Shown in pieces: positions 46,974 to 63,745 of a stretch of DNA of 64,000 bases. The stretch is from positions 1 to 64,000 of IMG/VR virus record IMGVR_UViG_3300005758_000044. The stretch is one strand, 5' to 3'. The position numbers were made by a program, and so were the translations under genes. Each line of letters begins with the position of its first letter. Positions within the stretch are counted from its first letter, which is position 1. The DNA comes from a virus. Lineage: Duplodnaviria; Heunggongvirae; Uroviricota; Caudoviricetes. Below the pieces are notes generated by a model that ran no database searches, had not been told where the DNA came from, and saw nothing but the letters and a program-made list of their open reading frames with translations.

Positions 46974-46981
46974 TGTTGACA

Positions 46982-47007: not shown

Positions 47008-47015
47008 TTGAATCG

Positions 47016-47032
47016 TGGTTTTCCGCGGCTGA
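47016..47032 (+). promoter_or_regulatory. GTGGTTTTCCGCGGCTGA motif copy
   Basis: conserved 18-mer. Confidence 0.5.
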
Positions 47033-47085
47033 CGATGTATGATGGGGCTTGACTTTTTCTAAAAAAAGTGTAGATTATATACACA

Positions 47086-47307: not shown

Positions 47308-47340
47308 CTTTCTCTAAACTCCTGATAACCTTTACTCACA

Positions 47341-47730: not shown

Positions 47731-47738
47731 CAACTTAC

Positions 47739-47770
47739 AAGGTTTGCGGTGATCCTTCGCAGAAAACCGA
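47739..47770 (+). repeat. conserved upstream hairpin element
   Basis: GGTTTGCGGTGATCCTTCGCAGAAAACCGA. Confidence 0.55.
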
Positions 47771-47811
47771 TTGACTTTCTTCAATTGTCTGTTATCTTGA
47801 AATCACAACAT

Positions 47812-48189: not shown

Positions 48190-48263
48190 CCGCTGAAGAA
48201 GCCTTGGGGTGAGGATAAAAAGCCCCTTGACTTTCTGTAAAGTTCTGACATACTGATTTCACG

Positions 48264-48452
48264 ATGAAACACGAAAAGTGGGTTGATGTCAACGGAGTTA
48301 CAGTCTACGAAACCGGCCGTCGCAGTTCCAAATTAGGTATCAACAAAGTGTTTCTCACCCGTGGTGAATTGATCGCCACAAAAGTGTTGTTGTCAGGCAC
48401 CGTAACCAAATACGGTACAACATTTATCGCTCCTTTCAAAAAGATTGTTTGA
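48264..48452 (+). CDS. hypothetical protein
   Basis: 62 aa. Confidence 0.5.
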   Translation: MKHEKWVDVNGVTVYETGRRSSKLGINKVFLTRGELIATKVLLSGTVTKYGTTFIAPFKKIV

Positions 48453-48485
48453 CTTTCTCTAAACTGCTGATAGGATAGTTCCACA

Positions 48486-48644
48486 ATGATTAAGATTACA
48501 TTCACTGATTCGTCAACTGTTGTTGTCAAGCGAGTTGTTTTTTATCTTGTATACGGACGACCGGTGATTGGTGTTATCTACAATGATGGTGATGAACCGA
48601 TTGTGCAATGTGTTGAAGAAGTGGAAAGTATTGAAGCTGCTTGA
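48486..48644 (+). CDS. small protein (~52 aa)
   Basis: hand-translated; own promoter. Confidence 0.3.
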   Translation: MIKITFTDSSTVVVKRVVFYLVYGRPVIGVIYNDGDEPIVQCVEEVESIEAA

Positions 48645-48677
48645 CATTCTCTAAATTGCTGATACACTGTATCCACA

Positions 48678-48905
48678 ATGAAAAACGAAGATGTGGTTCG
48701 TATCTGTCGGAACATCATCACCGGACAGTATTACTTGGTTCGTGGTGAATGTAAGGATTTGTTTGACGAATACGACTATGTGGTAATTCGAAGGGATGAT
48801 AAAGACGACTATAAAGACCACTATGTACGCAAACATCTGTTTGACAGTTTTGAGAATGTATCGTATCGGATGTTCAAGAAACTTAACAAAGAAGCTGGGT
48901 TCTAG
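48678..48905 (+). CDS. hypothetical protein
   Basis: 75 aa. Confidence 0.5.
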   Translation: MKNEDVVRICRNIITGQYYLVRGECKDLFDEYDYVVIRRDDKDDYKDHYVRKHLFDSFENVSYRMFKKLNKEAGF

Positions 48906-48946
48906 TTGACTTTCGATAAAACTGTGATACATTGATTTCAGATTTC

Positions 48947-49021
48947 GGGATCGTAGCTCAGTGGTAGAGCAGTGGTCTTTTAAACCATTGGTCGTGGGTT
49001 CAAGTCCCACCGGTCCCACCA
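48947..49021 (+). tRNA. tRNA-Lys (anticodon TTT), canonical
   Basis: GGGATCGTAGCTCAGTGGTAGAGCAGTGGTCTTTTAAACCATTGGTCGTGGGTTCAAGTCCCACCGGTCCCACCA; own early promoter at 48905. Confidence 0.8.
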
Positions 49022-49023
49022 CT

Positions 49024-49172
49024 TTTAGAATTCATCAGGTTGCCGAATACGAGGCTTAATCTGAAAGGACGATGAGTCTGATGAATTCTTGATTTACAGA
49101 TTGTTGTCCGCGTGGATATGGTACGAACGTGGACTCACGAAGCGAGGCGGCCCCAAATCGACAACAATCTGT
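49024..49172 (+). ncRNA. two consecutive long-stem hairpins downstream of tRNA-Lys
   Basis: 12-bp perfect stems AGAATTCATCAG/CTGATGAATTCT and CAGATTGTTGTC/GACAACAATCTG each enclosing 38-50 nt. Confidence 0.35.
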
Positions 49173-49174
49173 TA

Positions 49175-49203
49175 AGGTTTGCGGTGATCCTAATCAAAAC
49201 CGC
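49175..49203 (+). repeat. conserved upstream hairpin element
   Basis: AGGTTTGCGGTGATCCTAATCAAAACCGC. Confidence 0.6.
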
Positions 49204-49249
49204 TTGACTTTCTTCACAGAAGTTCTTTACAAGTCAGAAAAGTCTGATA

Positions 49250-49800
49250 AGATATTTTCAGTTGATGAGGCTATAGACAATCCGTTGGGAAATAAAGCAG
49301 AGAAATGACGGGACTCTGCCATCAACCTATAATTTTCAGTGGAAAATAACCGGAAGTAATGTACCGGGCCTCCACAAGGAGGTGAGATACGTAGTCATCG
49401 TGTATCCACTGACAGCTAACTCAGAGAGTGCCAGTCAATAGATGCCGAGCATGGGGCGACTGGTAATGCCGCTGAGGAAATGGAGAACCAGACCTGCTGT
49501 TCAAAGAATGAAAACTGGATCACTTTTAACCAAGCAATAGAGATTAGCTACTCGAAAACAGTCAAAAGTTGTACTGATAACAGCGTTGCAGGCGGCCTGT
49601 AAAATAATGTACGCAAACGGAAACAGATGAACAATGACTTTTTTGCTTGGTTGTATTTTTGAAAGCATAGCAAGATAACAGATAGACGCCGAACCTGTTG
49701 GTTGTAAAAGGTGACGCACACCGCCGTCGCGGGGGTCCACGTTCAATTCGTGGTAGGTTCGTAGGGAACATACGGCCATCCTTAAATGGAGAGTCGGTGA
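49250..49800 (+). ncRNA. promoter-driven ~550-nt non-coding transcript (unclassified structured RNA candidate)
   Basis: early promoter at 49204 followed by 560 nt with no plus-strand ORF >40 aa; local stems e.g. CCTCC-ACAA-GGAGG; ends at next promoter 49810. Confidence 0.4.
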
Positions 49801-49854
49801 AATCCTGAAACTTGCTATTGACTTTCTCTAAAACTCTGATAAGGTAGATTCACA

Positions 49855-50013
49855 ATGATTGAGATTATCCGTAATCCGTTGACAAAGTTGTCACTTCTCA
49901 GCAACATTTGGATTGAAGATGGTATGTTGTTTCACATCCTCATTCCACATGACACAGAACAAATCGAATTGTTGACTGACAATGAGATTGGTCAATATAT
50001 GGGCGGCAATTAA
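49855..50013 (+). CDS. small protein (~52 aa)
   Basis: hand-translated after promoter at 49810. Confidence 0.3.
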   Translation: MIEIIRNPLTKLSLLSNIWIEDGMLFHILIPHDTEQIELLTDNEIGQYMGGN

Positions 50014-50221
50014 AAAGTTGTTGACTTCATGATCTTTCGTTGGTACAGACAATGGAAATGTAGTCGTGGAAACCACGAATTGGTGTCTGGTTATGTGCCT
50101 ACCAACAACCCTTTGGCACTAGATCGTGAAGTCAAGTGTGTGCATTGTTCATTCAAAAAAATCGTTGGTAGACAATACTTCTTCGATTGACTTTCAGTAA
50201 ACCACTGATAGGATAATCATC

Positions 50222-50458
50222 ATGGCATACGATCCGGATCTTAGAAACTGTCAAAACATTCTTGAATCCAAGAGAACTTTTGTTGCCGATGACAGACAAC
50301 ATGCATATGAATCTGTTGTCAATGCCCTTAGCAAGGCAGGCTTTGGTGTGACCATGGTGGGTGATGTTCTCACTGTTCGTAACAAAGGATTTGATGCTAC
50401 GTTTATTCTTCACGAAGTAAGGCTTGACAGAGACCGCGTCGAACCTGATGGAAAATAA
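50222..50458 (+). CDS. hypothetical protein
   Basis: 78 aa. Confidence 0.5.
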   Translation: MAYDPDLRNCQNILESKRTFVADDRQHAYESVVNALSKAGFGVTMVGDVLTVRNKGFDATFILHEVRLDRDRVEPDGK

Positions 50459-50720
50459 AAGCGTGTATATGTCAAATACGAACTGGACAGATACACCGCC
50501 AAATACGCCGGGGTGGTATTGGGTAAGACGCAAGAAAGAATGTAGTGTGGAGTATTTTCCATACTATGGTCAATACCCCGAACACTGGTCTGTCATTCGT
50601 CAGAATACTTTGGACATGCTGATTGAAAGCGGTAACCAACAGCTAACAGATGAATTTGCCAATCTTGACCAGAAGACGTTCGTCGTAGAATACAACGGTC
50701 CAATCTTTCCACCAAACTAG
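50448..50720 (+). CDS. hypothetical protein
   Basis: start uncertain (MENKSVYM or MSNTNW). Confidence 0.4.
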   Translation: MENKSVYMSNTNWTDTPPNTPGWYWVRRKKECSVEYFPYYGQYPEHWSVIRQNTLDMLIESGNQQLTDEFANLDQKTFVVEYNGPIFPPN

Positions 50721-50758
50721 TTGACTTTCAGTAAACCACTGATAGGATATTCGCACAA

Positions 50759-50917
50759 TGAAAATCTTGGTGTATTATCCTGCTACGCAAAAAACCCAAA
50801 TCATTGAATGTGAAAGAATTGAGGCGGGTCCCGGCGGAATCATGTGGGTCAATCGCCGTGATTGTGGATTTGTTGGATTTTGCGAGGACTATACAATTAC
50901 CATAGTCGATCATTGAC
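50759..50917 (+). CDS. small protein (~52 aa)
   Basis: hand-translated after promoter at 50720. Confidence 0.3.
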
Positions 50918-51085
50918 TTTCAATTGACTGGTGGCGAAACGGCAAACGCACGGAGGCATCCGATTCTCCAATGTTGTATGTCGGCAGACAGAAGCATTGG
51001 CATTGCACGAATGAAGGTTCAAATCCTTCCCAGTCAACCATTTTCCGTTTGACATTTTCTAAAACCCTGATAACCTATTGTTGTT

Positions 51086-51433
51086 ATGAAAATCACATAC
51101 TCAATCGCAGAAGCACTCACCATCCTCACCGAACGTGCCAAGGCACTCAACCACATTCAAGATTTGTCGGTTGAAGTAACATACCCACAAAACCCCATTG
51201 GTGCACAAGACACCAATACCACCGATCAACATCCTTTGGAAGCTTACGCCGTAGTCGTCCGGGAATATGGCGGTTCTAGGCACAATACGAACAAGATTCC
51301 AGCCATCAAGGCGATTCGAGACCGAGTCCGGGGTTTGGGACTCGCTGACGCAAAGTGTGTCATTGAATCCGACCCCGCGTTGGTGCTCATTCACTTTTCT
51401 CGCTGCAATACGTTGAGCGGAATTTCCGAGTGA
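51086..51433 (+). CDS. ribosomal protein bL12 (L7/L12) C-terminal-domain homologue
   Basis: IKAIRDRVRGLGLADAKCVIESDPA aligns to bL12 CTD [24 protein letters not shown]; novel N-terminal half. Confidence 0.6.
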   Translation: MKITYSIAEALTILTERAKALNHIQDLSVEVTYPQNPIGAQDTNTTDQHPLEAYAVVVREYGGSRHNTNKIPAIKAIRDRVRGLGLADAKCVIESDPALVLIHFSRCNTLSGISE

Positions 51434-51474
51434 CCAGCCGATAATCAATTCACAAGGTTGTGGGTCATCCTTTC

Positions 51475-51508
51475 AACAAAACCCCACCCATATATACAGG
51501 GCATCTGC
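51475..51508 (+). repeat. upstream hairpin element variant (GTGGGT/ACCCCAC stem)
   Basis: GGTTGTGGGTCATCCTTTCAACAAAACCCCACCC. Confidence 0.5.
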
Positions 51509-51580
51509 GCTGCCCACCAGCCGCTTTTGTCGCCGGATGCCACTTGACTTTCTCTAAAACCGATATACACTGTACCCACA

Positions 51581-51838
51581 ATGAATCCTACGAACTACAC
51601 GGTCGGTCAACGCATCATCCTCACCAAAGACAACTGGTTGACCATTCGCAACAGCAATCGCAGTATTCACGCATATCCAGACGATAACTACGTTAACATC
51701 GTTTATCAATTGATGACCAACAACGTCGCAGGCACCGTCACCAAGCGATTTACGCCCGGTTATGAGTTCAACGTTACCTTTGACAATGGTCAAGTGCTGC
51801 AAATGAAAGATCACTGGGTCACTCCCATTTCCAAGTAA
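51581..51838 (+). CDS. hypothetical protein
   Basis: 85 aa. Confidence 0.5.
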   Translation: MNPTNYTVGQRIILTKDNWLTIRNSNRSIHAYPDDNYVNIVYQLMTNNVAGTVTKRFTPGYEFNVTFDNGQVLQMKDHWVTPISK

Positions 51839-51893
51839 TTCAGTTCAAAAATCCGGTTGACTTTCTCTAAAACTTCGGTAACCTAGTCTCCTA

Positions 51894-52109
51894 ATGAATA
51901 ACGAACTGATCGCTAAGGCCCTCAAGAAGTTCCCCAAGGCCAAAAAGATCGCAGTCGAAAACTTCACCATGGGCTACAACGAACTGTCTATGGAAGCTTC
52001 CATGAACCTCGAAATGGATGCCTCACTCTACAAGTGGAACGCACACACCACCAACGCCATTCGTTACGTGCTACAACACAAACACGCATTCAAAACCATG
52101 GCAGACTAA
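51894..52109 (+). CDS. hypothetical protein
   Basis: 71 aa. Confidence 0.5.
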   Translation: MNNELIAKALKKFPKAKKIAVENFTMGYNELSMEASMNLEMDASLYKWNAHTTNAIRYVLQHKHAFKTMAD

Positions 52110-52136
52110 CACACAATCGGTTGTGGGTGATCCGTC
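52110..52136 (+). repeat. upstream hairpin element variant (GGGT/ACCC stem)
   Basis: GGTTGTGGGTGATCCGTCAAAACCC. Confidence 0.5.
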
Positions 52137-52307
52137 AAAACCCTCAACAACACCACTACAAATAGTAGTGTCGCGACAATAAGAACTGCTATTCAATCAA
52201 AAACACCTCGCTACGTCAACCACATAATGGTTTTCCGCGCCTGGTGTTGCTGCTTTTTATAGAAAGTTCTTGTGTTTGCCACTCTGCCGGTATAGAGTAT
52301 TGCCACG

Positions 52308-52625
52308 ATGAACGACACCGTGACACCCTTTGTTCCCACCCGCTTTGTTCCCACCCGTGACGATCTGATCGGCTACATCTCCGATATCTACAAGGAAATC
52401 AATGGGTTTCGTCCTCGCCCCGACTGGTCCATGCTCACTTACGAGGAGCTTGACAAGTGGGGTCGTGAGTTGTCCGCCGAAGCCATCCTCCACCGTAAGC
52501 AACAGGTGCAATGGGCCCGCCTGGCCCGCAAACTACGTCGTGCTCGTCAACGGGCTTGGGTGCAAAAGAAACGCACCTACTTCACACCCGTCACCTTCAC
52601 ACTGGGCATGCTAATGCCCACCTAA
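52308..52625 (+). CDS. hypothetical Arg-rich protein (GC-rich)
   Basis: 105 aa. Confidence 0.5.
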   Translation: MNDTVTPFVPTRFVPTRDDLIGYISDIYKEINGFRPRPDWSMLTYEELDKWGRELSAEAILHRKQQVQWARLARKLRRARQRAWVQKKRTYFTPVTFTLGMLMPT

Positions 52626-52664
52626 ACCACCGGGAGCTGTCAAGCTCCCTTTTTCACTATTGCC

Positions 52665-52682
52665 ATGGTTTTCCGCGGCTGG
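52665..52682 (+). promoter_or_regulatory. ATGGTTTTCCGCGGCTGG motif copy
   Basis: exact consensus. Confidence 0.5.
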
Positions 52683-52689
52683 TTGATGC

Positions 52690-52720
52690 ATAAAAAGACC
52701 CGGATTTTACTCCGGGTTGT
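52690..52720 (-). terminator. rho-independent terminator
   Basis: gacccgga-ttttac-tccgggt with T-run on minus. Confidence 0.65.
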
Positions 52721-57605: not shown

Positions 57606-57640
57606 ACCGTCACCCAGAAATGAGTGACGGTTTTTTGTTT
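57606..57640 (+). terminator. rho-independent terminator
   Basis: ccgtcac-ccagaaatga-gtgacgg + TTTTTTGTTTTTT. Confidence 0.7.
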
Positions 57641-57645: not shown

Positions 57646-57675
57646 CATTGACGAAACGAGATGGTGGTGATAGTG
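57646..57675 (+). promoter_or_regulatory. early-type promoter for tRNA cluster
   Basis: TTGACGaaacgagatggtggTGATAGTGT. Confidence 0.55.
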
Positions 57676-57732
57676 TAAGTGGACAGTAGACAACGAGTTT
57701 GAAAACTCGATCTACGAAAGATTTAAAAAGCA

Positions 57733-57762
57733 GTTGACGAAACGAAAGTTTCTGATATACTG
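57733..57762 (+). promoter_or_regulatory. second early-type promoter for tRNA cluster
   Basis: TTGACGaaacgaaagtttcTGATATACT. Confidence 0.55.
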
Positions 57763-57951
57763 AGTGAAGATTAAAGACGGTTTGAAACTCCATCTGTTGA
57801 ACCGCCGCCAGTGAGTCGATGAAAATCGACGATAGGTAAAGTCTGGAAAAATCAATTGATTGGTCCTTGGGTGTTATCCTCGTAGAGAACCCGTAGGGCG
57901 ATGACGGCATAACCGAGGTTATTGCTGTGAACATTGAAAAATAAATGTAAG

Positions 57952-58041
57952 TGCCAACATGACCCGAATGGCTAAGGGCCCTGTTTTGTAAACAGGTATG
58001 AGGTAAAACTCTTTGTCGGTTCAAGTCCGACTGTTGGCTCC
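57952..58041 (+). tRNA. tRNA-Tyr (GTA), canonical class II
   Basis: acceptor GCCAACA/TGTTGGC, loop TTGTAAA, long variable arm, T-arm GTCGGTTCAAGTCCGAC, CCA. Confidence 0.7.
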
Positions 58042-58050
58042 AATTTATAA

Positions 58051-58129
58051 TGGTGTATGTAGCATAATTGGTTTAATGCCCCAGATTGTGAGTCTGGCAG
58101 ATGCGGGTTCAAATCCCGTCGTACACCCC
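58051..58129 (+). tRNA. tRNA-His (GTG) with G-1
   Basis: extra 5' G pairing with C73, loop TTGTGAG, T-arm GCGGGTTCAAATCCCGT. Confidence 0.75.
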
Positions 58130-58190
58130 AAATTTCGAGAGTAACGGTTGATGACCGAAGTTGATGCGATCCATCAGAACTCTCACATTA

Positions 58191-58266
58191 TGGTCCCATC
58201 GTCTAATAGGAAAGGATTCTAGATTCTCAATCTGGAGAACTCGGTTCGACTCCGAGTGGGACTGCC
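58191..58266 (+). tRNA. tRNA-Glu (CTC), canonical T-arm
   Basis: acceptor GGTCCCA/TGGGACT, loop TTCTCAA, T-arm CTCGGTTCGACTCCGAG. Confidence 0.55.
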
Positions 58267-58275
58267 AATTTACAA

Positions 58276-58348
58276 TCACCTTATCGTCTAACATAGGACG
58301 CCCAGTGCTCGAGTGGGAAATTTTGGTTTGATACCAAGTAAGGTGGCC
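58276..58348 (+). tRNA. tRNA-like, degenerate (T-loop TTTGATA, no U33)
   Basis: acceptor CACCTTA/TAAGGTG + CCA but non-canonical anticodon arm. Confidence 0.3.
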
Positions 58349-58357
58349 AATTTACAA

Positions 58358-58432
58358 TGGTCTATTCGACTACCAGCTAGGTCGCTAGTTTTTCAAACTG
58401 GAGAAGTGGGGGCGGCACCCACATAGACTACC
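58358..58432 (+). tRNA. tRNA-Glu (TTC), non-canonical T-loop GGCGGCA
   Basis: GGTCTAT-TC-GACT..GGTC-G-CTAGT-TTTTCAA-ACTGG..GTGGG-GGCGGCA-CCCAC-ATAGACT-A-CCA. Confidence 0.5.
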
Positions 58433-58442
58433 AATTTACATA

Positions 58443-58516
58443 TATCCGCCCATGTACCAAGGCTGGCGACAGAGACTCCAAATCTCAGTGGGTAGGTTCG
58501 ATTCCTACGGTGGATG
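58443..58516 (+). tRNA. tRNA-Trp (CCA)-like, canonical T-arm
   Basis: loop CTCCAAA, T-arm GTAGGTTCGATTCCTAC, acceptor ATCCGCC/GGTGGAT, CCA. Confidence 0.45.
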
Positions 58517-58994
58517 CCATTTTTCTTTTGTTTTTACCAGCATAGGTATCCGATTGACTATGACAATTCGGACATAATATTCGAAGGTTTTCTATACGAT
58601 TATCGTTTCGGATTCCATTGATATGATCCAATTGTAATGATAATGGTTTGTCACACCACGATGTAATTTTACAAACAGAACATTCGTTTTTTAGATATTT
58701 TTCAGAAATTAGTCGGAGTTTAAGACGATTCATTGATTTGTATTGTGAATTCTGTATGAGAATCGTTTTCATATCTTGTCTTATAACGTTTTGCGCATTA
58801 AGTCTGTATTTTGAAGAATCAAAGTGTGATGTGGTCAAATTCAATTTTTTACATTTATCTTTGATATTTTTGTATTGAGCACCACACACATTTAGTTTAA
58901 GTTTGAATATGATATCATTAAATGAATTGCTAGAATAAAACAATTTGATAAAATCATCGTCGTTCATGTTTTTTATTATGTTTTTTTGGTTCAT
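58485..58994 (-). CDS. HNH homing endonuclease
   Basis: LQLDHINGIRNDNRIENLRILCPNCHSQ HNH motif; C-terminal codons are antisense to tRNA-Trp. Confidence 0.8.
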   Translation of the reverse strand: MNQKNIIKNMNDDDFIKLFYSSNSFNDIIFKLKLNVCGAQYKNIKDKCKKLNLTTSHFDSSKYRLNAQNVIRQDMKTILIQNSQYKSMNRLKLRLISEKYLKNECSVCKITSWCDKPLSLQLDHINGIRNDNRIENLRILCPNCHSQSDTYAGKNKRKMASTVGIEPTH

Positions 58995-59069
58995 AAGTAA
59001 TACAATCGTTGTGGTGTATAATCACACTACTTATAAATAGTAGATAATTTAGAAAATACACATTTTAAT

Positions 59070-59099
59070 TATGGGTGCGTTACCCACCGTCCATGCCAA
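59070..59099 (+). pseudogene. tRNA 3'-half remnant (T-arm TGGG-TGCGTTA-CCCA + acceptor + CCA)
   Basis: no matching 5' acceptor strand within 150 nt; abuts HNH gene start. Confidence 0.35.
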
Positions 59100-59108
59100 T
59101 TTACAAAT

Positions 59109-59183
59109 GCGATATAGGTGTTTATAGATACACGCGAGTTTTCCAAACTTGAGTAGGGGGTGCATTACCCTCATATCGCTCCA
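59109..59183 (+). tRNA. tRNA-Gly (TCC), non-canonical (T-loop TGCATTA, D-loop TTATAGAT)
   Basis: GCGATAT-AG-GTGT..ACAC-G-CGAGT-TTTCCAA-ACTTG..GGGGG-TGCATTA-CCCTC-ATATCGC-T-CCA. Confidence 0.5.
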
Positions 59184-59190
59184 ATTTTTT

Positions 59191-59256
59191 GGGGTATAAG
59201 AGGAACAGCAGACTCATTTCCCTGTCACGGAAAAGATAGTGGGGGCAGCACCCATA
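59191..59256 (+). tRNA. tRNA-Asp (GTC), non-canonical (T-loop GGCAGCA)
   Basis: perfect anticodon stem TTTCC/GGAAA, loop CTGTCAC, T-arm GTGGG-GGCAGCA-CCCAT, CCA. Confidence 0.5.
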
Positions 59257-59273
59257 TACCTCGCCATTTTAAT

Positions 59274-59348
59274 TGTGGAGTATCATAACAGTAATGAGAC
59301 TAGCTGTTAACTAGTAATATGTAGGGGCGGAACCTACCTCCACAGCCA
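59274..59348 (+). tRNA. tRNA-Asn (GTT), non-canonical (T-loop GGCGGAA)
   Basis: acceptor TGTGGAG/CTCCACA, anticodon arm ACTAG-CTGTTAA-CTAGT, T-arm GTAGG-GGCGGAA-CCTAC, CCA. Confidence 0.55.
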
Positions 59349-59349
59349 T

Positions 59350-59688
59350 TTTTTTACCATACAGATGAAGGCGACAAGCTAGTATATTTTGAGTGGTTCG
59401 CCCCAATCCTTTTACCCGGGCGGGGTTCTTGGTTCGACTCCAAGAGAGTGTATGATGCAACGAAGTAGTAACTGTGTGGGATCCTGAAAGACGACCATAG
59501 AATAAGTGAATCCGGAACATAGTTTCTATGATTGGAACAAACGTGAAATCCAGTAAACAATTTTTGAATAGCTGATAAGGTCTGAAGAAGCTAGCATAAG
59601 TAAGACACGAACCAACGGAGTATCTGTTGTGGAATAGTAAGCGATAAGTTAGTTGAATAGATTGATCACTATATCAACTGATTTTCAT
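59350..59688 (+). ncRNA. unassigned structured region with orphan canonical T-arm (CTTGGTTCGACTCCAAG) and local stems
   Basis: no ORF, no complete cloverleaf; GGCGA...TCGCC and CCCGGGCGGGG stems. Confidence 0.25.
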
Positions 59689-59762
59689 GGCCATATAAAG
59701 TAATAGTAACCTAACCCTCTGTCTAAGGGAAGTCCGGGGAGCGTAACCCCGTATGGCCGCCA
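59689..59762 (+). tRNA. tRNA-like (GTC?), non-canonical T-loop AGCGTAA
   Basis: acceptor GGCCATA/TATGGCC, T-arm CGGGG-AGCGTAA-CCCCG, CCA; weak D/anticodon stems. Confidence 0.35.
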
Positions 59763-59775
59763 ATTTCTAACTGTT

Positions 59776-60621
59776 ATGATTACAAAAATTGATGTTAACA
59801 ACAAGTCTTGTGGCATAGGTGATATTGTCAGTGTTTTGCCTTACGTTGAAATGTATCGTCAAATGACGAACAACGAAGTATGGTTCGACATGAAACACAA
59901 CATTTCACATCTGTTTAAAAATTCATATCCGAACATATTGTTTGGAGAGCCAACAAAGTGTGATGAAATAAAGACCATTGGGTTTAAGTGGGATCGTCCA
60001 ATGAGACAATCTGCTGCCGAATGTCTTGGATTGACATACGTTGAATTACATCCTAAGATTGACGTTGTTGTTGGTCCACGATATATCAAACAAAAGTATG
60101 TGACATTATCGATGCAATCTACGCACCAAGGGCGATATTGGAACTATAAAAATGGGTGGGATATTCTAATCAAAGAGTTGAAAACCAAACACAAGTTGAG
60201 CGTAGTTTGTATTGACAAGTACCGAGATTTTGGTGATGGTAAGTGGAGAAATTTTGTTCCAAAAAATGCTATAGATCGATGTGGAATTGAATTACAAGAT
60301 GCAATAAACTATATTCATCATGCTGAATTTCACATAGGATTGAGTAGTGGATTTTCGTGGATTTCACACGCGATGGACAAACCTGTCGTGGTAATGAAAA
60401 GTGTAACCGAAAATTGGTTTGAGTTTACAAAAAACATGATTTGTGTAAATAACGAATTTGTATGTCATGGATGTCTTAATCATATGGACACACAAGTGGC
60501 TGATCTAGATGATTGGGTATTTTGTCCACACCATAAAAATACAGATCGTATGTTTGAGTGTAGCAAAACAATTACTCCAAAAATGTTCCTTGAAAAAATG
60601 AAACCTTTGTTAGAACGATAA
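59776..60621 (+). CDS. GT9 (heptosyltransferase-like) glycosyltransferase
   Basis: HAEFHIGLSSGFSWISHAMDKPVVVM GT-B C-terminal pattern. Confidence 0.5.
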   Translation: MITKIDVNNKSCGIGDIVSVLPYVEMYRQMTNNEVWFDMKHNISHLFKNSYPNILFGEPTKCDEIKTIGFKWDRPMRQSAAECLGLTYVELHPKIDVVVGPRYIKQKYVTLSMQSTHQGRYWNYKNGWDILIKELKTKHKLSVVCIDKYRDFGDGKWRNFVPKNAIDRCGIELQDAINYIHHAEFHIGLSSGFSWISHAMDKPVVVMKSVTENWFEFTKNMICVNNEFVCHGCLNHMDTQVADLDDWVFCPHHKNTDRMFECSKTITPKMFLEKMKPLLER

Positions 60622-60717
60622 TTTAAGTGTATACAAAGAAAACTTGACTCGCTTCGGGGGTATCGGCGCCAGTCTAAAATAGGGGTACAAGTCCCAAGAA
60701 TGCCCCCACATTTTAAT

Positions 60718-60793
60718 TCCAGAGTAGCTCAATGGTAGATGCGTTCGGCTGTTAACCGAAATGTTGTAGGTTCAAGTCCTACCTCTGGAGCCA
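60718..60793 (+). tRNA. tRNA-Asn (GTT), canonical
   Basis: TCCAGAG-TA-GCTCAATGGTAGATGC..TTCGG-CTGTTAA-CCGAA..GTAGGTTCAAGTCCTAC-CTCTGGA-G-CCA. Confidence 0.75.
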
Positions 60794-60799
60794 ACTTAT

Positions 60800-61040
60800 A
60801 CATCTTCTGACGTGACTAAAGCGACATAACCAATGCGCAACGGTAAGGTACGCTAGAAATATGTTGTGAAAGAAGTACCCTCAGTCACCGTCATGTGGTG
60901 AAATAGACATATGACGTAAAACTTTTCAATAGGGATGAGTAATCGTAAAAAAACAAACTAGATAGATAAGCAAGTTCGAAATTGCTTGACCATTGTGAGA
61001 TCCTAGTGTATGTTTAGATGAAAGGCCCTGCCAATTTACG
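60800..61040 (+). ncRNA. unassigned structured spacer (long hairpin TGACGTGACT...AGTCACCGTCA; T-arm-like GCAAGTTCGAAATTGCTTG)
   Basis: no ORF, no complete tRNA. Confidence 0.25.
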
Positions 61041-61047
61041 GTGAGTG

Positions 61048-61128
61048 TTCCCTATGGCTGTCTGTAAAACAGTTGCCATCAATAAATAGGGCGGACGGCA
61101 AGTGGTTCAACTCCTCCACTCACCACCA
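61048..61128 (+). tRNA. tRNA-like (anticodon loop CTGTAAA, GTA?), aberrant D/T arms
   Basis: perfect 7-bp acceptor GGTGAGT/ACTCACC + CCA; extended anticodon hairpin ATGGC..GCCAT. Confidence 0.3.
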
Positions 61129-61212
61129 ATTTCTGAAACCGTATGTTCAGAGAGCCCCGTAGTTTTTCTTCGTTAGCTACGGTAAAGTATCAAAAAACGA
61201 TTTGATTTTTAT

Positions 61213-61371
61213 GGTCGGTGCTAGAGGAGCAACTGTTGACTCATTGGGTCGTGGCTCACCGCAAGGTGCGAACCCATTGGTAACAAACTAATAACCATAG
61301 TCAATGTTATCATGTATTGAGAAATGCCGATTTCGCACAGCGAGTTGGTTCGAATCCAACACCGACCACCA
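61213..61371 (+). tRNA. long tRNA-like (159 nt): canonical T-arm GTTGGTTCGAATCCAAC with acceptor GGTCGGT/ACCGACC + CCA; possible insert/intron
   Basis: acceptor halves are 150 nt apart; internal stems include a variable-arm-like TCGC-ACA-GCGA. Confidence 0.3.
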
Positions 61372-61378
61372 CTTTTTT

Positions 61379-61465
61379 GGGTGTGTCGCATAGCAGCAAT
61401 TGCAGGAGACTGTAAATCTCCCGGCCTAACGGCCTACGTAGGTGCGAGTCCTACCGTACCCACCA
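61379..61465 (+). tRNA. tRNA-Tyr (GTA) class II, non-canonical (T-loop TGCGAGT, D-loop TAGCAGCAAT)
   Basis: anticodon arm GGAGA-CTGTAAA-TCTCC, variable arm GGCC-TAAC-GGCC, T-stem GTAGG/CCTAC, CCA. Confidence 0.55.
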
Positions 61466-61469
61466 TTTT

Positions 61470-61560
61470 TGAATTGTGTTGAAATAAACTTGGAGCGAGT
61501 GAACTCGGTCAACATAGTAATGGCCAAGTGTAGTTGAGGCTACACCAATTCAAAGAGTTT
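61470..61560 (+). ncRNA. cloverleaf-like structured spacer without CCA
   Basis: outer stem GAATTG/CAATTC enclosing arms CTTGG..CCAAG (with CGAGT-GAA-CTCG) and GTGTAG-TTGAGG-CTACAC. Confidence 0.3.
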
Positions 61561-61563
61561 TAT

Positions 61564-61639
61564 CCGGACTAAGCTAACTTAGTAGAAGCGTCTGCCTGAA
61601 GAGCAGAATGAGTCGGAGCGTAACCGACAGTCCGGGCCA
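61564..61639 (+). tRNA. tRNA-Phe (GAA), non-canonical (T-loop AGCGTAA)
   Basis: CCGGACT..anticodon arm TCTGC-CTGAAGA-GCAGA..GTCGG-AGCGTAA-CCGAC-AGTCCGG-G-CCA. Confidence 0.55.
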
Positions 61640-61653
61640 TTTTAATACTAATT

Positions 61654-62556
61654 ATGAAGATTATAGTTACAGGAGGTTGTGGATTTATTGGGTCACACAT
61701 TGTTGATGAACTTGTCAATGGAAATCATGAAGTATTAGTGATTGACAATCAAAGTGCAAACAATGACGTGTTTTATATCAATTCTAATGCTAAGTATTTT
61801 AATTGTGATATAAACGATTATGATCATGTGTTTGAACTGACAAAAGGAGTGGAATGTATATTTCACCTGGCGGCAGAATCGAGAATTGGACCATGTATTG
61901 AAAATCCAATACTTGCTACAAAAACAAATGTGTTGGGCACGTGCAACTTGTTACAATCAGCAAAATTGAACGGTGTGAAGAGGTTCATATATTCTTCTAC
62001 ATCATCTGCTTATGGCAATAATACTTCGCCTCAAGTAGAAACGATGACAACTAATTGTTTGAATCCGTATTCGGTTACAAAAGTTGCGGGGGAAGAGTTG
62101 TGTAAGATGTACTATGATCTGTACAAATTACCCACGATATCATTTAGATATTTTAATGTCTATGGTGATAGACAACCTACTAAGGGACAATATGCTCCGG
62201 TGATCAGTATTTTTATGAGACAGTTGAAATCCAATCAACCACTTACAATAGTTGGTGATGGAGAGCAACGTAGAGATTTTGTAAATGTACACGACATAGT
62301 TTCTGCCAATATGTTGGCGATGAATACCACGGAGTCAGAATGTTTTGGAAAAATATTCAACATTGGGTCTGGTATCAATTATTCTGTACAACAGATTGCC
62401 GATTTGATTAGTTCTAACCAAGTATATTTACCTGCTAGAGACGGAGAGTCAAAAGGAACATTGGCAAATATTGATTTGGCAAAACGATTGCTCAAGTTTT
62501 ATCCACAACACGATGTTATAGAGTGGATTGACCAAAGGTTGTACAATGTGAAGTGA
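61654..62556 (+). CDS. NAD-dependent epimerase/dehydratase (SDR; UDP-sugar epimerase/decarboxylase-like)
   Basis: TGGCGFIGSH Rossmann motif, SSTSSAYG and YSVTKVAGE (YxxxK) catalytic motif. Confidence 0.85.
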   Translation: MKIIVTGGCGFIGSHIVDELVNGNHEVLVIDNQSANNDVFYINSNAKYFNCDINDYDHVFELTKGVECIFHLAAESRIGPCIENPILATKTNVLGTCNLLQSAKLNGVKRFIYSSTSSAYGNNTSPQVETMTTNCLNPYSVTKVAGEELCKMYYDLYKLPTISFRYFNVYGDRQPTKGQYAPVISIFMRQLKSNQPLTIVGDGEQRRDFVNVHDIVSANMLAMNTTESECFGKIFNIGSGINYSVQQIADLISSNQVYLPARDGESKGTLANIDLAKRLLKFYPQHDVIEWIDQRLYNVK

Positions 62557-62557
62557 T

Positions 62558-62758
62558 ATGAACACTTTAATAGACATACTGAACACCATGGATGTTCCTA
62601 TATTAAGGAAACATGATCTGGGATGGTTGAAGAGAAATCTTGCTGTAAGAAACAGAAATCACCCAGACTTTTATAGAGCAATGACAATCATTCATGATTT
62701 GACGAAGAAAAAAATTGACAAATCTGATGATGATGGTAATATGAGTACAGTTCATTGA
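62558..62758 (+). CDS. hypothetical protein
   Basis: 66 aa, translationally coupled to epimerase. Confidence 0.45.
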   Translation: MNTLIDILNTMDVPILRKHDLGWLKRNLAVRNRNHPDFYRAMTIIHDLTKKKIDKSDDDGNMSTVH

Positions 62759-62883
62759 AATATGACACAAAGTTTTTAAAAAGGTGACATCAATATTTGC
62801 GGTGCACCTGGCGGAACTAGATAGATCTTGGAGTAGGGCACGAAACAAGAGAACGAAGGTGAAATCCTAGGGAAACCATTTAT

Positions 62884-62962
62884 GCAAGTGAAGCCACAAT
62901 AGACGGGCACCCGGCTCTTAACCGGACGATTCGTGTGGGAGCATTACCCACCACTTGCACCA
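62884..62962 (+). tRNA. tRNA-Lys (CTT), non-canonical (T-loop AGCATTA)
   Basis: GCAAGTG..CCGG-CTCTTAA-CCGG..GTGGG-AGCATTA-CCCAC-CACTTGC-A-CCA. Confidence 0.5.
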
Positions 62963-62969
62963 ATTTTAT

Positions 62970-63044
62970 GGGATTCAAGCATTAAGAGTGATGCAGTAGG
63001 CTTTTAACCTTCAGAACACGGGGCAGTACCGTGGAGTCCCACCA
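62970..63044 (+). tRNA. tRNA-Lys (TTT), non-canonical (T-loop GGCAGTA)
   Basis: GGGATTC-AA-GCAT..ATGC..loop CTTTTAA..CACGG-GGCAGTA-CCGTG-GAGTCCC-A-CCA. Confidence 0.5.
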
Positions 63045-63054
63045 GATTTTCAAT

Positions 63055-63127
63055 GCTCCTATACGATAATGTAGTCCCTGTGCCTGATTAGCGCAGTGTC
63101 GTGGTTCAAGTCCACGTAGGAGTACCA
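63055..63127 (+). tRNA. tRNA-Ile (GAT), canonical T-arm, D-loop lacking GG
   Basis: 6-bp anticodon stem CTGTGC/GCGCAG, loop CTGATTA, T-arm CGTGGTTCAAGTCCACG, CCA. Confidence 0.55.
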
Positions 63128-63133
63128 ATTTAT

Positions 63134-63212
63134 GGAGTCGAAGCCACAATAGACGGGCACCCGGCTTTTAACCGGAATATTCGTGTGGGAGCATTACCCA
63201 CCGGCTCCACCA
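63134..63212 (+). tRNA. tRNA-Lys (TTT), non-canonical, near-duplicate of 62884 with loop CTTTTAA
   Basis: GGAGTCG..CCGG-CTTTTAA-CCGG..GTGGG-AGCATTA-CCCAC-CGGCTCC-A-CCA. Confidence 0.5.
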
Positions 63213-63297
63213 ATTTCAACGGGTAACTGGCCCCGAAAGTGACTGCCGACCGGTACATTCGGTAAAACACAGAGACAGCTTGGAGAGTACAGCACCA
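63213..63297 (+). ncRNA. structured spacer ending in CACCA (no cloverleaf found)
   Basis: hairpin ACCG-GTACATT-CGGT; no acceptor pairing. Confidence 0.2.
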
Positions 63298-63408
63298 ATT
63301 TTAATAGAGGGGTTTGGTAGTTAAAAACCGTCAAAGTCAGGGAAAACTACAAGTCGAGATAGATATAAATGAACGTATCGTGAAATCCTTAACGCAAACA
63401 ATTTTGAT

Positions 63409-63486
63409 GGTGTTATGGACTAGAACATTCGGGATAGTCGGGGGACGAAAATCTTCCTATTACGGGTTCGAATCCCGTTAACACCA
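63409..63486 (+). tRNA. tRNA-like (GAA?), canonical T-arm, no encoded CCA
   Basis: acceptor GGTGTTA/TAACACC, D-stem GACT/AGTC, T-arm ACGGGTTCGAATCCCGT; weak anticodon stem. Confidence 0.4.
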
Positions 63487-63617
63487 CTGATTTTTTGAAA
63501 TCATTGAGGGGTCAGTGCATAGATCAGTTCGGGTAGTGGAGTAATTACCATGAGCCAAAGATTAATACGAATAAGGTATTGGCTGATAGCGACCTGAGTT
63601 TCAAAATTAATTTCAAT

Positions 63618-63695
63618 TGTCCCGTAGCTCAGTTGGTTTAGAGCAATGTGTTGATAACGCATGGGTCGTCGGTTCAAGTCCGACCGGGACAACCA
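63618..63695 (+). tRNA. tRNA-Ile (GAT), canonical
   Basis: TGTCCCG-TA-GCTCAGTTGGTTTAGAGC..loop TTGATAA..GTCGGTTCAAGTCCGAC-CGGGACA-A-CCA. Confidence 0.8.
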
Positions 63696-63745
63696 AATTT
63701 TAATATAATGCTATACTTTTGAGCTATAACTTACTATTTATTCGT

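Follow-up and report, generated by a model that had tools for sequence, protein, structure and literature searches.

In standard tRNAs, G18 is intercalated between bases 57 and 58, where it bonds to Ψ55, and this G18–Ψ55 contact is a near-universal lock of the tRNA corner. Host core enzymes have their target residues here, namely U54 for TrmA, U55 for TruB, and G18 for TrmH. Alphaproteobacterial tmRNA is accepted by AlaRS, EF-Tu, and the ribosome. Its two-piece form (RF01849) has the T-loop consensus GGCgGUA in Rfam and reads GGCAGUA in Pelagibacter. The T-loops of riboswitches follow a YGNRA consensus with an intercalating adenosine, and one rRNA T-loop is GGAAG (bioRxiv 10.1101/2022.12.26.521914). 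In mitochondrial tRNAs, the D-loop/T-loop interaction is lost and the loops vary in size and sequence (PMC7609411). For phage tRNAs, changes in the anticodon loop have been put forward as a means of evading anticodon nucleases (van den Berg et al. 2023; PMC10264068). Our literature searches found no description of a tRNA class with A18 and G55.

The cluster described here comes from a jumbo phage; the window is the whole 64,000-nt stretch of its IMG/VR record that was analysed. On the + strand at 57.9-63.7 kb, ten non-canonical (NC) tRNAs stand alongside about seven canonical ones, and, judged from their sequences, the NC units are very probably tRNAs that function with an A18:G55 elbow. Mechanical scanning for cloverleaves (stems of 7/4/5/5 bp, 7-nt loops, discriminator plus CCA) recovered the NC units of the initial annotation with the T-loops it had read, and added an Asp-GUC unit at 59689. 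NC-model (R1) bits are scores from a model built on NC tRNAs, under which those of the same phage outside the seed reach 57-65 bits; MFE is the minimum-free-energy fold.

58359..58433, +, NC tRNA-Glu (UUC): D-loop ACC-AG-CTA, T-loop GGCGGCA; R1 64.4 bits; MFE is the cloverleaf; absent from RF00005 matches at E ≤ 10 and from ARAGORN output
59109..59183, +, NC tRNA-Gly (UCC): D-loop TTAT-AG-AT, T-loop TGCATTA, U73; NC model 53.9 bits; not found by ARAGORN or the Rfam tRNA model
59191..59266, +, NC tRNA-Asp (GUC): D-loop AAC-AG-CAG, T-loop GGCAGCA, G73; NC model 58.8 bits; copies at 98-99% identity in contigs L062, L072, and L101
59274..59348, +, NC tRNA-Asn (GUU): D-loop AAC-AG-TA, T-loop GGCGGAA, G73; NC model 63.8 bits
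59689..59762, +, NC tRNA-Asp (GUC) with U37: anticodon loop CUGUCUA, D-loop AAT-AG-TA, T-loop AGCGTAA; NC model 58.5 bits; 98.7% identical in contig L081, 83.5% in L115
61379..61465, +, NC tRNA-Tyr (GUA) with a long variable arm: D-loop AGC-AG-CAA, T-loop TGCGAGT, U54:A58 retained alongside G55; found by ARAGORN and RF00005 (46 bits)
61564..61639, +, NC tRNA-Phe (GAA): D-loop ACTT-AG-TAG, T-loop AGCGTAA; found by ARAGORN; Rfam 42.1 bits, NC model 59.8 bits
62884..62962, +, NC tRNA-Lys (CUU) with an 8-nt variable loop: D-loop CAAT-AG-AC, T-loop AGCATTA; NC model 42.1 bits
62970..63044, +, NC tRNA-Lys (UUU): D-loop TAAG-AG-TG, T-loop GGCAGTA; NC model 58.8 bits
63134..63212, +, NC tRNA-Lys (UUU), paralogue of 62884: T-loop AGCATTA; Rfam 29.8 bits, NC model 42.4 bits; compensatory acceptor-stem changes among orthologues

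The T-loop form of these ten tRNAs is N-G55-C56-R57-N-N-A. U33 is present in 10/10, as is an encoded CCA with ATTT after it; a purine at 37 is found in 9/10, the exception being U37 of 59689. The MFE fold is a cloverleaf or near-cloverleaf in seven, and three lack a full cloverleaf as MFE. Over 20 shuffles, the 17 cloverleaf-plus-CCA matches in the window compare with a mean of 0.05 per shuffle and the ten NC-type matches with none, greatly exceeding chance.

The canonical class was borne out by ARAGORN and Rfam. Its members, together with the elements that frame and interrupt the cluster, are as follows.

57606-57631, terminator hairpin that ends the preceding unit
about 57655-57685, second, similar sigma-70-type promoter
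57734..57761, +, sigma-70-type promoter, the best one upstream of the tRNAs: TTGACG-16-TATACT, with TG
57765..57950, +, 5′ leader RNA of the tRNA transcription unit, structured and conserved
57953..58042, +, long-variable-arm tRNA with canonical elbow: UGU anticodon, U73; ARAGORN Thr-tgt; RF00005 47.2 bits
58053..58130, +, canonical tRNA-His (GUG): T-loop TTCAAAT, GG in the D-loop; ARAGORN, RF00005, cloverleaf scan
58192..58267, +, canonical tRNA-Glu (CUC): ARAGORN, RF00005, cloverleaf scan
58448..58519, +, canonical-elbow tRNA-Trp (CCA): ARAGORN
58485..58994, −, HNH homing-endonuclease gene within the cluster: Pfam HNH_3/HNH
60718..60793, +, canonical tRNA-Asn (GUU): ARAGORN; RF00005 62.1 bits
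63618..63695, +, canonical tRNA-Ile (GAU): ARAGORN; RF00005 66.4 bits

Like the annotated phage T5 cluster, this one combines tRNAs with HNH endonuclease genes, small ORFs, and unusual units resembling stable RNAs; several CCA-terminated non-tRNA units also occur. Both promoters are kept in the alignment of relatives, and the leader RNA has invariant blocks, and its hairpins show compensatory changes, across seven related contigs; an Rfam search with it gave no match. The cluster had been taken to end at 63.7 kb, but it extends past the window by at least 8.5 kb. A Tyr identity for 57953..58042 was rejected: its 7-nt anticodon loop, UUUGUAA, gives UGU, and ARAGORN calls it Thr-tgt, likewise for the orthologue in contig L017. 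The NC tRNAs had further been described as a shadow set of the canonical ones. The classes mostly differ in anticodon, however, and overlap in only four: Asn-GUU and Lys-UUU are shared in the window, as had been noted, and Glu-UUC and Met-CAU just past its end.

To define the class, 184 distinct NC tRNAs with 38 anticodons, from 49 viral contigs of IMG/VR plus several MAG contigs, were set against 403 canonical tRNAs; G55 and C56 belong to the NC set by definition, and because the set was picked by T-arm pattern and stem pairing, its stem statistics are circular and its class counts are not a prevalence. The initial annotation considered the class unexpected in phage, yet it is widespread in uncultured phage contigs. 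As in RF00005 tRNAs, the NC units have a 7/4/5/5-bp cloverleaf, 7-nt anticodon and T loops, U33, purine 37 (178/184), CCA, and bacterial identity elements, whereas A18 replaces G18, G55 replaces U/Ψ55, and positions 54 and 58 are often A/G and U/G. Compared with canonical tRNAs, their D-loops are shorter (7-8 nt) and A60 is preferred (122/184, versus T60 in 358/403 canonical tRNAs); R57 is present in 183/184.

The D-loops had been read as lacking G18G19, and the elbow contacts as lost. G18 is indeed missing, but G19 is kept: NC tRNAs with 7-nt D-loops have A18 in 74/76 and G19 in 75/76. G19:C56 and G53:C61 are likewise retained. The elbow is thus re-wired rather than lost, the 18:55 contact being swapped for an A:G combination and often the 54:58 pair too, which is U:A, A:U, or G:G. 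Both G:G (64 vs. 4) and A:U (51 vs. 19) track G55. U55 occurs with GG 340 times and G55 with AG 108 times, the discordant combinations numbering 14 and 13. In aligned 7-nt D-loops, A18/G55 is found 75 times, G18/U55 107 times, A18/U55 twice, and G18/G55 never (Fisher p = 5e-50).

Orthologues show that the two loops change together, as the claim of co-adaptation had it. In all nine orthologue clusters with both states the 18/55 switch is concerted (AG in 29/29 G55 members, GG in 14/14 U55 members), and the switches are repeated and independent. The contig L099 orthologue of tRNA-Tyr 61379 has AGC-GG-CTA with TTCGAGT, and the L001 and L099 orthologues of tRNA-Lys 62884 combine CAGT-GG-AC and TTCAACT. 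In Xanthomonas phage X1, the orthologue of tRNA-Lys 62970, at 83% identity, carries TAA-GG-TG together with ATCGTTA.

By analogy with the YGNRA T-loops of FMN and cobalamin riboswitches, rRNA, and RNase P, A18 may sit in the slot of G18 and pair with G55. The NC loop likewise has G at position 2, a purine at position 4, and a non-canonical 1-5 pair (G...G is present in the rRNA GGAAG loop), and in those motifs an adenosine from a distant loop enters between positions 4 and 5, opposite the position-2 base. The NC elbow would then be the T-loop form with G at position 2 and an intercalating adenosine, placed inside a tRNA. Unlike in the riboswitch, rRNA, and ribozyme motifs, it lies in a tRNA T-arm, the adenosine would be A18 of the D-loop, and the position-3 C still pairs with G19 in tRNA fashion. 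The T-arm loops of alphaproteobacterial tmRNA are identical to the commonest NC T-loops. The tmRNA, however, lacks an anticodon arm and partners SmpB, whereas NC anticodons cover nearly all amino acids. A likeness to mitochondrial tRNAs had also been proposed, and, as in animal mitochondrial "type II" tRNAs, GG and the T-Ψ-C consensus are missing. The comparison does not hold further, as NC loop sizes are fixed, G19:C56 and G53:C61 are kept, and 18:55 strictly co-varies.

The identity elements of the NC set fit the anticodons: G3:U70 in 6/6 Ala against 4/178 non-Ala tRNAs, U73 in 8/8 Cys, G73 in 11/11 Asp, 8/8 Asn, and 8/8 Trp, and C73 in 10/11 His. Orthologues across many contigs are 80-99% conserved with compensatory stem changes. 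These matching elements, the conservation across many phages, and the concerted 18/55 switches bear out the view that the units are functional and not decaying. NC and canonical tRNAs would be co-transcribed from the early sigma-70-type promoters, and the former excised from the precursor with the encoded CCA as 3′ end. As the identity elements are intact, host synthetases would probably charge them, and they would serve translation of phage mRNAs.

On balance, these are probably genuine jumbo-phage elongator tRNAs that fold to the usual L-shape by means of another corner lock. As the rationale for the changed elbow, we tentatively favor the idea that it insulates the tRNAs from host factors recognizing the canonical core. 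The re-wired core would strip the residues for TrmA, TruB, and TrmH and, less markedly, U8, U16/17/20, G46, and U47. Such a tRNA would fold without host modifications or chaperones and be a poor ligand for host factors, nucleases included, whose recognition relies on the canonical T-loop and elbow. Residues depleted in NC tRNAs are U8, G46, U47, U16/17, U20, and D-loop U, as well as the target residues of T54, Ψ55, Gm18, D, s4U8, and m7G46, which is circumstantial support for the suggested escape from nucleases or modification enzymes. Depletion of the other modification targets could equally reflect relaxed constraint. Two arrays are wholly NC (17/17 and 12/12), which we reckon as support for insulation. 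For a phage-modified translation apparatus, also suggested initially, no evidence was found, and no tRNA-related phage enzyme was identified within the window.

Neutral compensatory drift is a rather unlikely account, in which the NC tRNAs work and A18:G55 is an equal alternative without particular advantage, reached occasionally by phage tRNA genes that evolve fast under weaker constraint. It would suit the NC fraction per array, which spans 0 to about 0.6 continuously in most arrays, the lower conservation of R15, Y48, and A21 in NC tRNAs, and the functioning of the same T-loop type in other RNAs; moreover, no selective agent was identified. However, the 184 aligned 7-nt D-loops include no G18/G55 and two A18/U55. 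Since intermediates are essentially absent, each 18/55 switch crosses a fitness valley, yet there are at least nine. Drift must also accommodate the two entirely NC arrays and the restricted occurrence of the class, with no ordinary chromosomal NC tRNA among the genome matches listed and none in the six cultured phage clusters inspected. The inspected tRNAs of T5, Bacillus phage CM1, Xanthomonas phage X1, S-CRM01, CcrBL9, Gordonia phage Rosalind (L243), and Ea9-2 have U55 and G18 throughout.

The strongest form of the nuclease-escape idea appears improbable. Here, a phage factor or infection-triggered host factor would destroy or disable tRNAs with the canonical T54-Ψ55/G18 elbow, leaving the NC tRNAs as a resistant pool that sustains phage translation. 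The signature spans 38 anticodons irrespective of isoacceptor, in keeping with an agent that recognizes some feature common to all tRNAs, and some arrays are wholly NC. The bacterial toxin CdiA-CT E479, which cleaves the T-loop between T and Ψ, is a precedent (PMC9086364). Resistance to anticodon nucleases through loop changes has been proposed for phage tRNAs (PMC10264068), and this phage also has U37 variants of Asp (59689) and Ile (63055), conserved positions likewise off the host consensus; that work covers the anticodon loop only and does not mention T- or D-loops. However, most arrays, the present cluster included, keep many canonical tRNAs and four anticodons are duplicated, so an agent disabling all canonical tRNAs is unlikely to be the whole story. 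Literature searches did not find an elbow-directed anti-phage nuclease, and no candidate nuclease was found within the window. We know of no such elbow-directed enzyme.

It is very unlikely that the NC units are tRNA-shaped RNAs acting outside translation, such as decoys or sponges that would occupy tRNA-binding defence proteins or enzymes of the host: T5-type tRNA regions do contain stable tRNA-like RNAs with no assigned function, and this cluster several CCA-terminated non-tRNA units, but a decoy should copy the canonical elbow, not alter it, and the retained identity elements and proper anticodon loops indicate decoding. A pseudogene reading, in which decaying duplicates lost conserved loop nucleotides, might appeal to the poor tool scores and to the debris in the cluster (59069-59098; 58277, 61039, 63409), but it is largely refuted by perfect stems, U33, CCA, and nearly constant R37, by loop changes that obey one exact, co-varying pattern, by anticodons that agree with identity elements, and by conserved orthologues with compensatory changes.

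The two classes also differ in detection. In the window, 8/10 NC tRNAs are missed by ARAGORN and 7/10 by the Rfam tRNA model, and over the comparison set ARAGORN recalls 41% of NC tRNAs versus 99% of canonical ones. Standard tRNA finders thus overlook most NC tRNA genes.

Genuine debris, aberrant units (a further one lies at 61039), and intermediates between the classes are also present in the cluster:

58277..58349, +, odd tRNA-like unit: T-loop TTTGATA, D-loop AACATA, anticodon loop without U33
59069..59098, +, orphan 3′ tRNA fragment adjoining the HNH gene: T-arm TGCGTTA, acceptor 3′ strand, and CCA; 5′ half not found in the sequence
63055..63127, +, tRNA-Ile (GAU) with U37: canonical T-loop TTCAAGT, D-loop AATGTA without GG; ARAGORN, cloverleaf scan; Rfam 35.8 bits
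63409..63486, +, tRNA-like unit: canonical T-arm, no CCA, aberrant anticodon arm; RF00005 36.3 bits

Orthologues of 58277 retain the body with variable, expanded anticodon loops, and ARAGORN gives the one in contig L017 a 4-base anticodon. Units 58277 and 63055 are intermediates that belong to neither class.

A mechanical cloverleaf scan of the window, in which U33 was demanded and position 37 left free, showed that the two tRNA classes proposed in the initial annotation are real. All nine non-canonical (NC) units named there were recovered with exactly the T-loops assigned to them, and a tenth was found at 59689. In all ten, the acceptor stem is 7 bp, the anticodon and T stems are 5 bp, and the anticodon and T loops are 7 nt; 19 to 21 of the 21 stem pairs are formed, U33 is present, and CCA is encoded. 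This recovery is far above the shuffled expectation (17 cloverleafs in the window versus 0.05 per window in shuffled sequence; 10 of the NC type versus none), and the minimum-energy fold is a cloverleaf for most of the ten units. An alternative alignment yielding canonical T-loops, which had been envisaged, is ruled out: the register is set by the acceptor and T stems, and 10/10 units have loops of the form NGCRNNA. The D-loops, described as devoid of G18G19, lack G18 and keep G19, so that A-G stands in place of G-G. Units 58277 and 63055 are intermediates between the classes. The unit at 57953, previously called Tyr, has the anticodon UGU according to ARAGORN; this tRNA (57953-58042, + strand) combines the long variable arm of Leu/Ser/Tyr tRNAs with a UGU (Thr) anticodon and U73, and is kept in the comparison contig L017.

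The NC class extends well beyond this phage. Scanning IMG/VR with one non-canonical T-arm returned at least 118 loci; among the matches listed, 184 distinct NC tRNAs with 38 anticodons came from 49 viral contigs, themselves from about 46 metagenomes, and from several MAG contigs, and the same listed loci held 403 canonical tRNAs. The NC T-loop is N54-G55-C56-R57-N58-N59-A60, 7 nt long and with G53:C61 retained, where G55 and C56 are invariant (184/184) by class definition and R57 is found in 183/184. Positions 54:58 co-vary, being U:A, A:U, or G:G in 173/184. The 7-nt D-loop pattern is A14-R15-N-A18-G19-N-A21 (A18 in 74/76, G19 in 75/76). Canonical tRNAs from the same contigs carry G18-G19 and U54-U55-C56-R57-A58. 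The NC signature is independent of the isoacceptor. In most arrays the NC share is between 0 and 0.6, and two arrays are entirely NC: 17/17 in L123 (JANPIW010000267, Verrucomicrobiaceae MAG) and 12/12 in L185 (DASYAY010000066, Chthoniobacter MAG). Both are short contigs binned with Verrucomicrobiota that could be phage, plasmid, or host DNA, and the ORFs flanking the two arrays gave no informative PHROG or Pfam match.

As the D-loop was outside the search pattern, its behaviour constitutes independent evidence. Among tRNAs with a 7-nt D-loop, 75 were A18/G55, 107 were G18/U55, two were A18/U55, and none was G18/G55 (Fisher p = 5e-50, relatedness ignored). Since this p value ignores relatedness, tRNAs with the same anticodon and stems at least 80% identical were also grouped as orthologues. 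Nine of the resulting clusters, namely Lys-CUU, Lys-UUU (two), Glu-UUC, Trp, Ala, Tyr, Cys, and Arg-UCG, contained both states, and in 9/9 the G55 members were AG (29/29) and the U55 members GG (14/14). Thus, the A18/G55 switch has been made repeatedly and across isoacceptor families, with both sides changing together each time. A nearest-neighbour test of independent origins, only moderately informative beside the orthologue clusters, showed that for 49 of 147 NC tRNAs the closest canonical tRNA serves the same amino acid. The earlier view that the D- and T-loop changes are co-adapted therefore stands by virtue of the strict 18/55 co-variation; the accompanying claim of elbow loss does not, as G19:C56 is kept. 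One of these orthologue pairs joins window unit 62970 to a tRNA-Lys in the G18/U55 state from Xanthomonas phage X1, which has been cultured. This unannotated tRNA-Lys (UUU; L121:12001-12074, OQ427096 137064-137137) has the T-loop ATCGTTA with an A54:U58 swap; many viral contigs have similar A54:U58 tRNAs, as does Bacillus phage CM1 (Phe).

In a standard tRNA, G18 lies between bases 57 and 58 and is bonded to Psi55, G19 pairs with C56, and U54-A58 form a reverse-Hoogsteen pair. These two contacts, G18-Psi55 and T54-A58, rank with the most conserved of all tertiary contacts in biology, and the residues making them are substrates of the near-universal enzymes TrmH, TruB, and TrmA. The NC class is a widespread natural one that appears to swap these contacts for A18-G55 and for A:U or G:G at 54:58. 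Like bacterial elongator tRNAs, NC tRNAs have the cloverleaf, U33, R37, and synthetase identity elements consistent with the anticodon, and they keep G19 and C56; A18 and G55 replace G18 and Psi55. In FMN and cobalamin riboswitches, T-loops follow the consensus YGNRA, and the inserted base is nearly always an adenosine facing the G at position 2 (bioRxiv 10.1101/2022.12.26.521914). NC tRNAs share the G at position 2 and the purine at position 4; their counterpart of the non-canonical 1-5 pair would be 54:58 (U:A, A:U, or G:G), and closure of an rRNA T-loop by G...G is known (GGAAG; bioRxiv 10.1101/2022.12.26.521914). The counterpart of the intercalating adenosine would be A18, known from sequence to be conserved and to co-vary strictly with G55. 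By analogy, the NC elbow is probably a T-loop of the riboswitch/rRNA type set in a tRNA, with G55 and A18 and an untouched G19:C56, in which A18 would insert between 57 and 58 opposite G55. Since G19:C56 is untouched, the stacking surface for RNase P, the ribosome, and T-boxes should be preserved. As this class has arisen repeatedly, the tRNA corner would have a second viable design, that of riboswitch and rRNA T-loops. A comparison with mitochondrial tRNAs, made in the initial annotation, does not fit: those have lost the loop-loop interaction altogether (PMC7609411), and here G19 (75/76), C56 (184/184), a 7-nt T-loop, and a defined D-loop pattern are present.

A scan of the genome collection was dominated by Pelagibacteraceae matches that represent the T-arm of tmRNA and not tRNAs, and through these tmRNA genes a further likeness was found. 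The alphaproteobacterial two-piece tmRNA (RF01849) has the consensus T-loop GGCgGUA, the same as the commonest NC loop, GGCRGUA; among the matches listed, L130:3283-3345 and about 100 other Pelagibacteraceae loci carry this loop. Alphaproteobacterial tmRNA is aminoacylated and functions on the ribosome. The window units themselves are not tmRNA domains, as neither ARAGORN nor Rfam matched tmRNA in the window and only the T-loop sequence is common to both.

Several features outside the NC selection criteria, namely R37, G3:U70, and the discriminator base, bear on whether these tRNAs work. A purine is present at 37 in 178/184 NC tRNAs (the exception in the window is 59689, with U37). G3:U70 is found in 6/6 NC Ala tRNAs versus 4/178 of the others. 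The discriminators are U73 for Cys (8/8) and Gly (8/10), G73 for Asp (11/11), Asn (8/8), and Trp (8/8), and C73 for His (10/11). Canonical tRNAs from the same contigs obey the same rules, which are those of bacteria. Furthermore, identity to orthologues from related contigs is 80-99%, with compensatory changes in the stems, and a covariance model (R1) seeded with 101 NC tRNAs scores non-seed NC tRNAs of the window phage at 57-65 bits. On the expression side, promoter-like sites and a conserved leader lie upstream of the cluster. The high stem-pairing percentage of the NC set was left out of the argument, because the set was picked by a stem scan and the figure is circular. The NC units are thus apparently working tRNAs, in agreement with the initial judgement of function over decay. 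Pseudogenization is essentially excluded by the unselected identity features, the conservation between genomes, and the model hits, the stems being intact.

Why phages would carry such an elbow is the weak part of our interpretation. Target residues of host core enzymes are depleted in NC tRNAs beyond the elbow too: U8 (0.68 vs 0.89 in canonical tRNAs), G46 (0.37 vs 0.64), U47 (0.44 vs 0.68), U16/17 (0.30 vs 0.57), and U20 (0.47 vs 0.67). In addition, 18/55 intermediates are almost absent. Considering this depletion and rarity together with the isoacceptor independence and the variable NC share, all-NC arrays included, the reading we prefer is insulation of NC tRNAs from host factors which recognise the canonical core. 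NC tRNAs would then be independent of TruB, TrmA, TrmH, and similar enzymes and poorly recognised by other binders of the standard T-loop, possibly including nucleases; T-loop cleavage between T and Psi is known for a bacterial toxin (CdiA-CT E479; PMC9086364). Neutral compensatory drift toward A18:G55 is a serious rival to insulation. We consider it rather unlikely that A18:G55 is a 'self' mark, with a phage or host nuclease or inactivator hitting every G18/T54-Psi55 tRNA and a resistant, orthogonal NC pool sustaining phage translation; if so, the 100% NC arrays would be the end-state of an arms race. A factor removing all canonical tRNAs during infection is disfavoured because canonical tRNAs, some sharing anticodons with NC tRNAs, sit in the same cluster.

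Standard tools largely overlook the NC class. In the cluster, ARAGORN reported 9 tRNAs and the Rfam tRNA model (RF00005) 7 to 10, depending on the threshold. Three of the ten window NC units (46.0, 42.1, and 29.8 bits) exceeded the RF00005 gathering threshold of 29 bits, and seven were not reported even at E<=10. ARAGORN, run locally, found 398/403 canonical (99%) and 76/184 NC tRNAs (41%), with 4/64 among the G54:G58 type. Therefore, tRNA counts for uncultured phages are systematically low, which touches codon-usage, host-prediction, and recoding analyses. G55/A18 tRNAs were absent from the cultured phages inspected (T5, Bacillus CM1, Xanthomonas X1, Caulobacter CcrBL9, Gordonia Rosalind, Erwinia Ea9-2, and Synechococcus S-CRM01), whose clusters were all U55/G18, with a few tRNAs bearing an A54:U58 swap or a U56 variant. 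Only body-level similarity emerged from blastn of the window, L123, and L115 (another comparison contig) tRNA arrays against INPHARED, and the plasmid collection gave nothing useful for the class. The searchable full-text literature, itself incomplete, held no description of A18/G55 phage tRNAs among reviews on T-loop modifications and non-canonical tRNAs, work on phage anticodon-loop evasion (PMC10264068), and work on tRNA arrays. The class is apparently undescribed, absence from such literature being no proof of novelty. It offers an experimental handle on the purpose of elbow modifications and of the chaperone activity of TruB and TrmA, and on why phages carry tRNAs; its scaffolds are possible starting points for engineered tRNAs insulated from host enzymes.

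The source of the window is a jumbo phage, since exact protein matches put the sequence on a 77-kb JGI metagenome contig (sample 3300007171) and on one of 0.2-1 Mb; none of 50,697 deposited phage genomes matches it closely. Its tRNA cluster, on the + strand from 57.9 kb, does not end at 63.7 kb and runs on for 8.5 kb or more beyond the window. Upstream lie a terminator and then two sigma-70-type promoters. Between these tandem promoters and the first tRNA is a structured leader of about 185 nt (57765-57950, + strand), conserved in related contigs, with the invariant blocks GGYTTGAAACTCCATCTGTTGARCC, GGGAAAATCAATTGATTGGTCC, and GAACCYATAGGGCGAT and hairpins showing compensatory changes in 7 related contigs; it matched no Rfam family. 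Besides tRNAs, the cluster holds a gene for an HNH endonuclease, two for sugar metabolism, and small ORFs, a layout similar to the annotated tRNA region of phage T5. No relatives of ORF 59776-60621 were found in IMG/VR. An orphan 3' tRNA fragment (59069-59098, + strand; T-arm, acceptor 3' strand, and CCA) abuts the start of the HNH gene (58485-58994, - strand), as if that gene had displaced the 5' half of the tRNA. Every cluster unit ends in CCA followed by ATTT, including five that are not tRNAs:

60923-61033, + strand, CCA+ATTT-ended non-tRNA unit
61039-61128, + strand, CCA+ATTT-ended non-tRNA unit
61480-61547, + strand, CCA+ATTT-ended non-tRNA unit
62780-62878, + strand, CCA+ATTT-ended non-tRNA unit
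63213-63297, + strand, CCA+ATTT-ended non-tRNA unit

These resemble the 'stable RNAs of unknown function' of the T5 tRNA region. In the unit at 61039-61128, an acceptor-like stem of 8 bp is accompanied by a long arm capped by a Tyr-like loop, CUGUAAA; the unit at 63213-63297 is 89-94% identical in six relatives and has no stable predicted fold. A tRNA-like family (58277-58349, + strand; L017:9467-9542; L027:2640-2740) has a conserved body and a variable, enlarged anticodon loop, with a 4-base anticodon, CUCU, in the L017 member (ARAGORN). Its T-loops are TTTGATA in the window and TGAAAAT in the relatives; position 56 is therefore not C. The second copies of Asp-GUC (59689-59762, + strand) and Ile-GAU (63055-63127, + strand) have U37 in place of the usual purine, and their loops, CUGUCUA and CUGAUUA, are also seen in Bacillus phage CM1 and in further phage contigs. 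Anticodon-loop changes of this kind have been proposed to blunt anticodon nucleases (PMC10264068).

A Pfam and PHROGs search for tRNA-related enzymes in the window and around the all-NC arrays found nothing tied to the elbow. The window matches comprised only an HNH endonuclease, a DNA ligase, a P-loop kinase, a metallophosphoesterase, sugar enzymes, and a helicase. RNA repair by three of these is conceivable:

956-2104, - strand, ATP-dependent ligase
19210-19944, - strand, metallophosphoesterase
25668-26402, - strand, P-loop kinase, zeta-toxin/polynucleotide-kinase-like

Regions 41000-52700 (+ strand) and about 33000-41000 (- strand) contain dozens of tiny genes, each with its own promoter, TTGACTTTCTCTAAAAC..TGATAnnnT. 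Between 33000 and 52700, their start codons lie about 10 nt past the -10 box, without a Shine-Dalgarno sequence, and many are preceded by AAGGTTTGCGGTGATCCTAATCAAAACCGC. Long ORFs are few in 33-52 kb because the region is filled with these small promoter-headed genes. Stop-codon recoding is not the reason: the 'ORFs' obtained by reading through TAG are low-complexity junk in which the early promoter motif appears reverse-complemented, and the TAG recoding test within the window was negative. The same phage has a CUA tRNA, a canonical-elbow amber suppressor labelled Pyl by ARAGORN, about 4.3 kb past the window end (L246:5907-5982). A tRNA-like RNA of about 113 nt (50925-51038, + strand), called by neither ARAGORN nor Rfam, combines an acceptor-type stem (TGACTGG/CCAGTCA) with a canonical T-arm (GAAGG-TTCAAAT-CCTTC) and ends in CCA, two extra internal hairpins replacing the D and anticodon arms. 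The roughly 770 nt at 49030-49800 (+ strand), 3' of tRNA-Lys 48947, show neither the small-gene pattern nor long ORFs, and gave no Rfam match at E<=1 beyond noise. At their end stands the motif GTGAAATCC, which recurs at 59543, 62862, and 63380.
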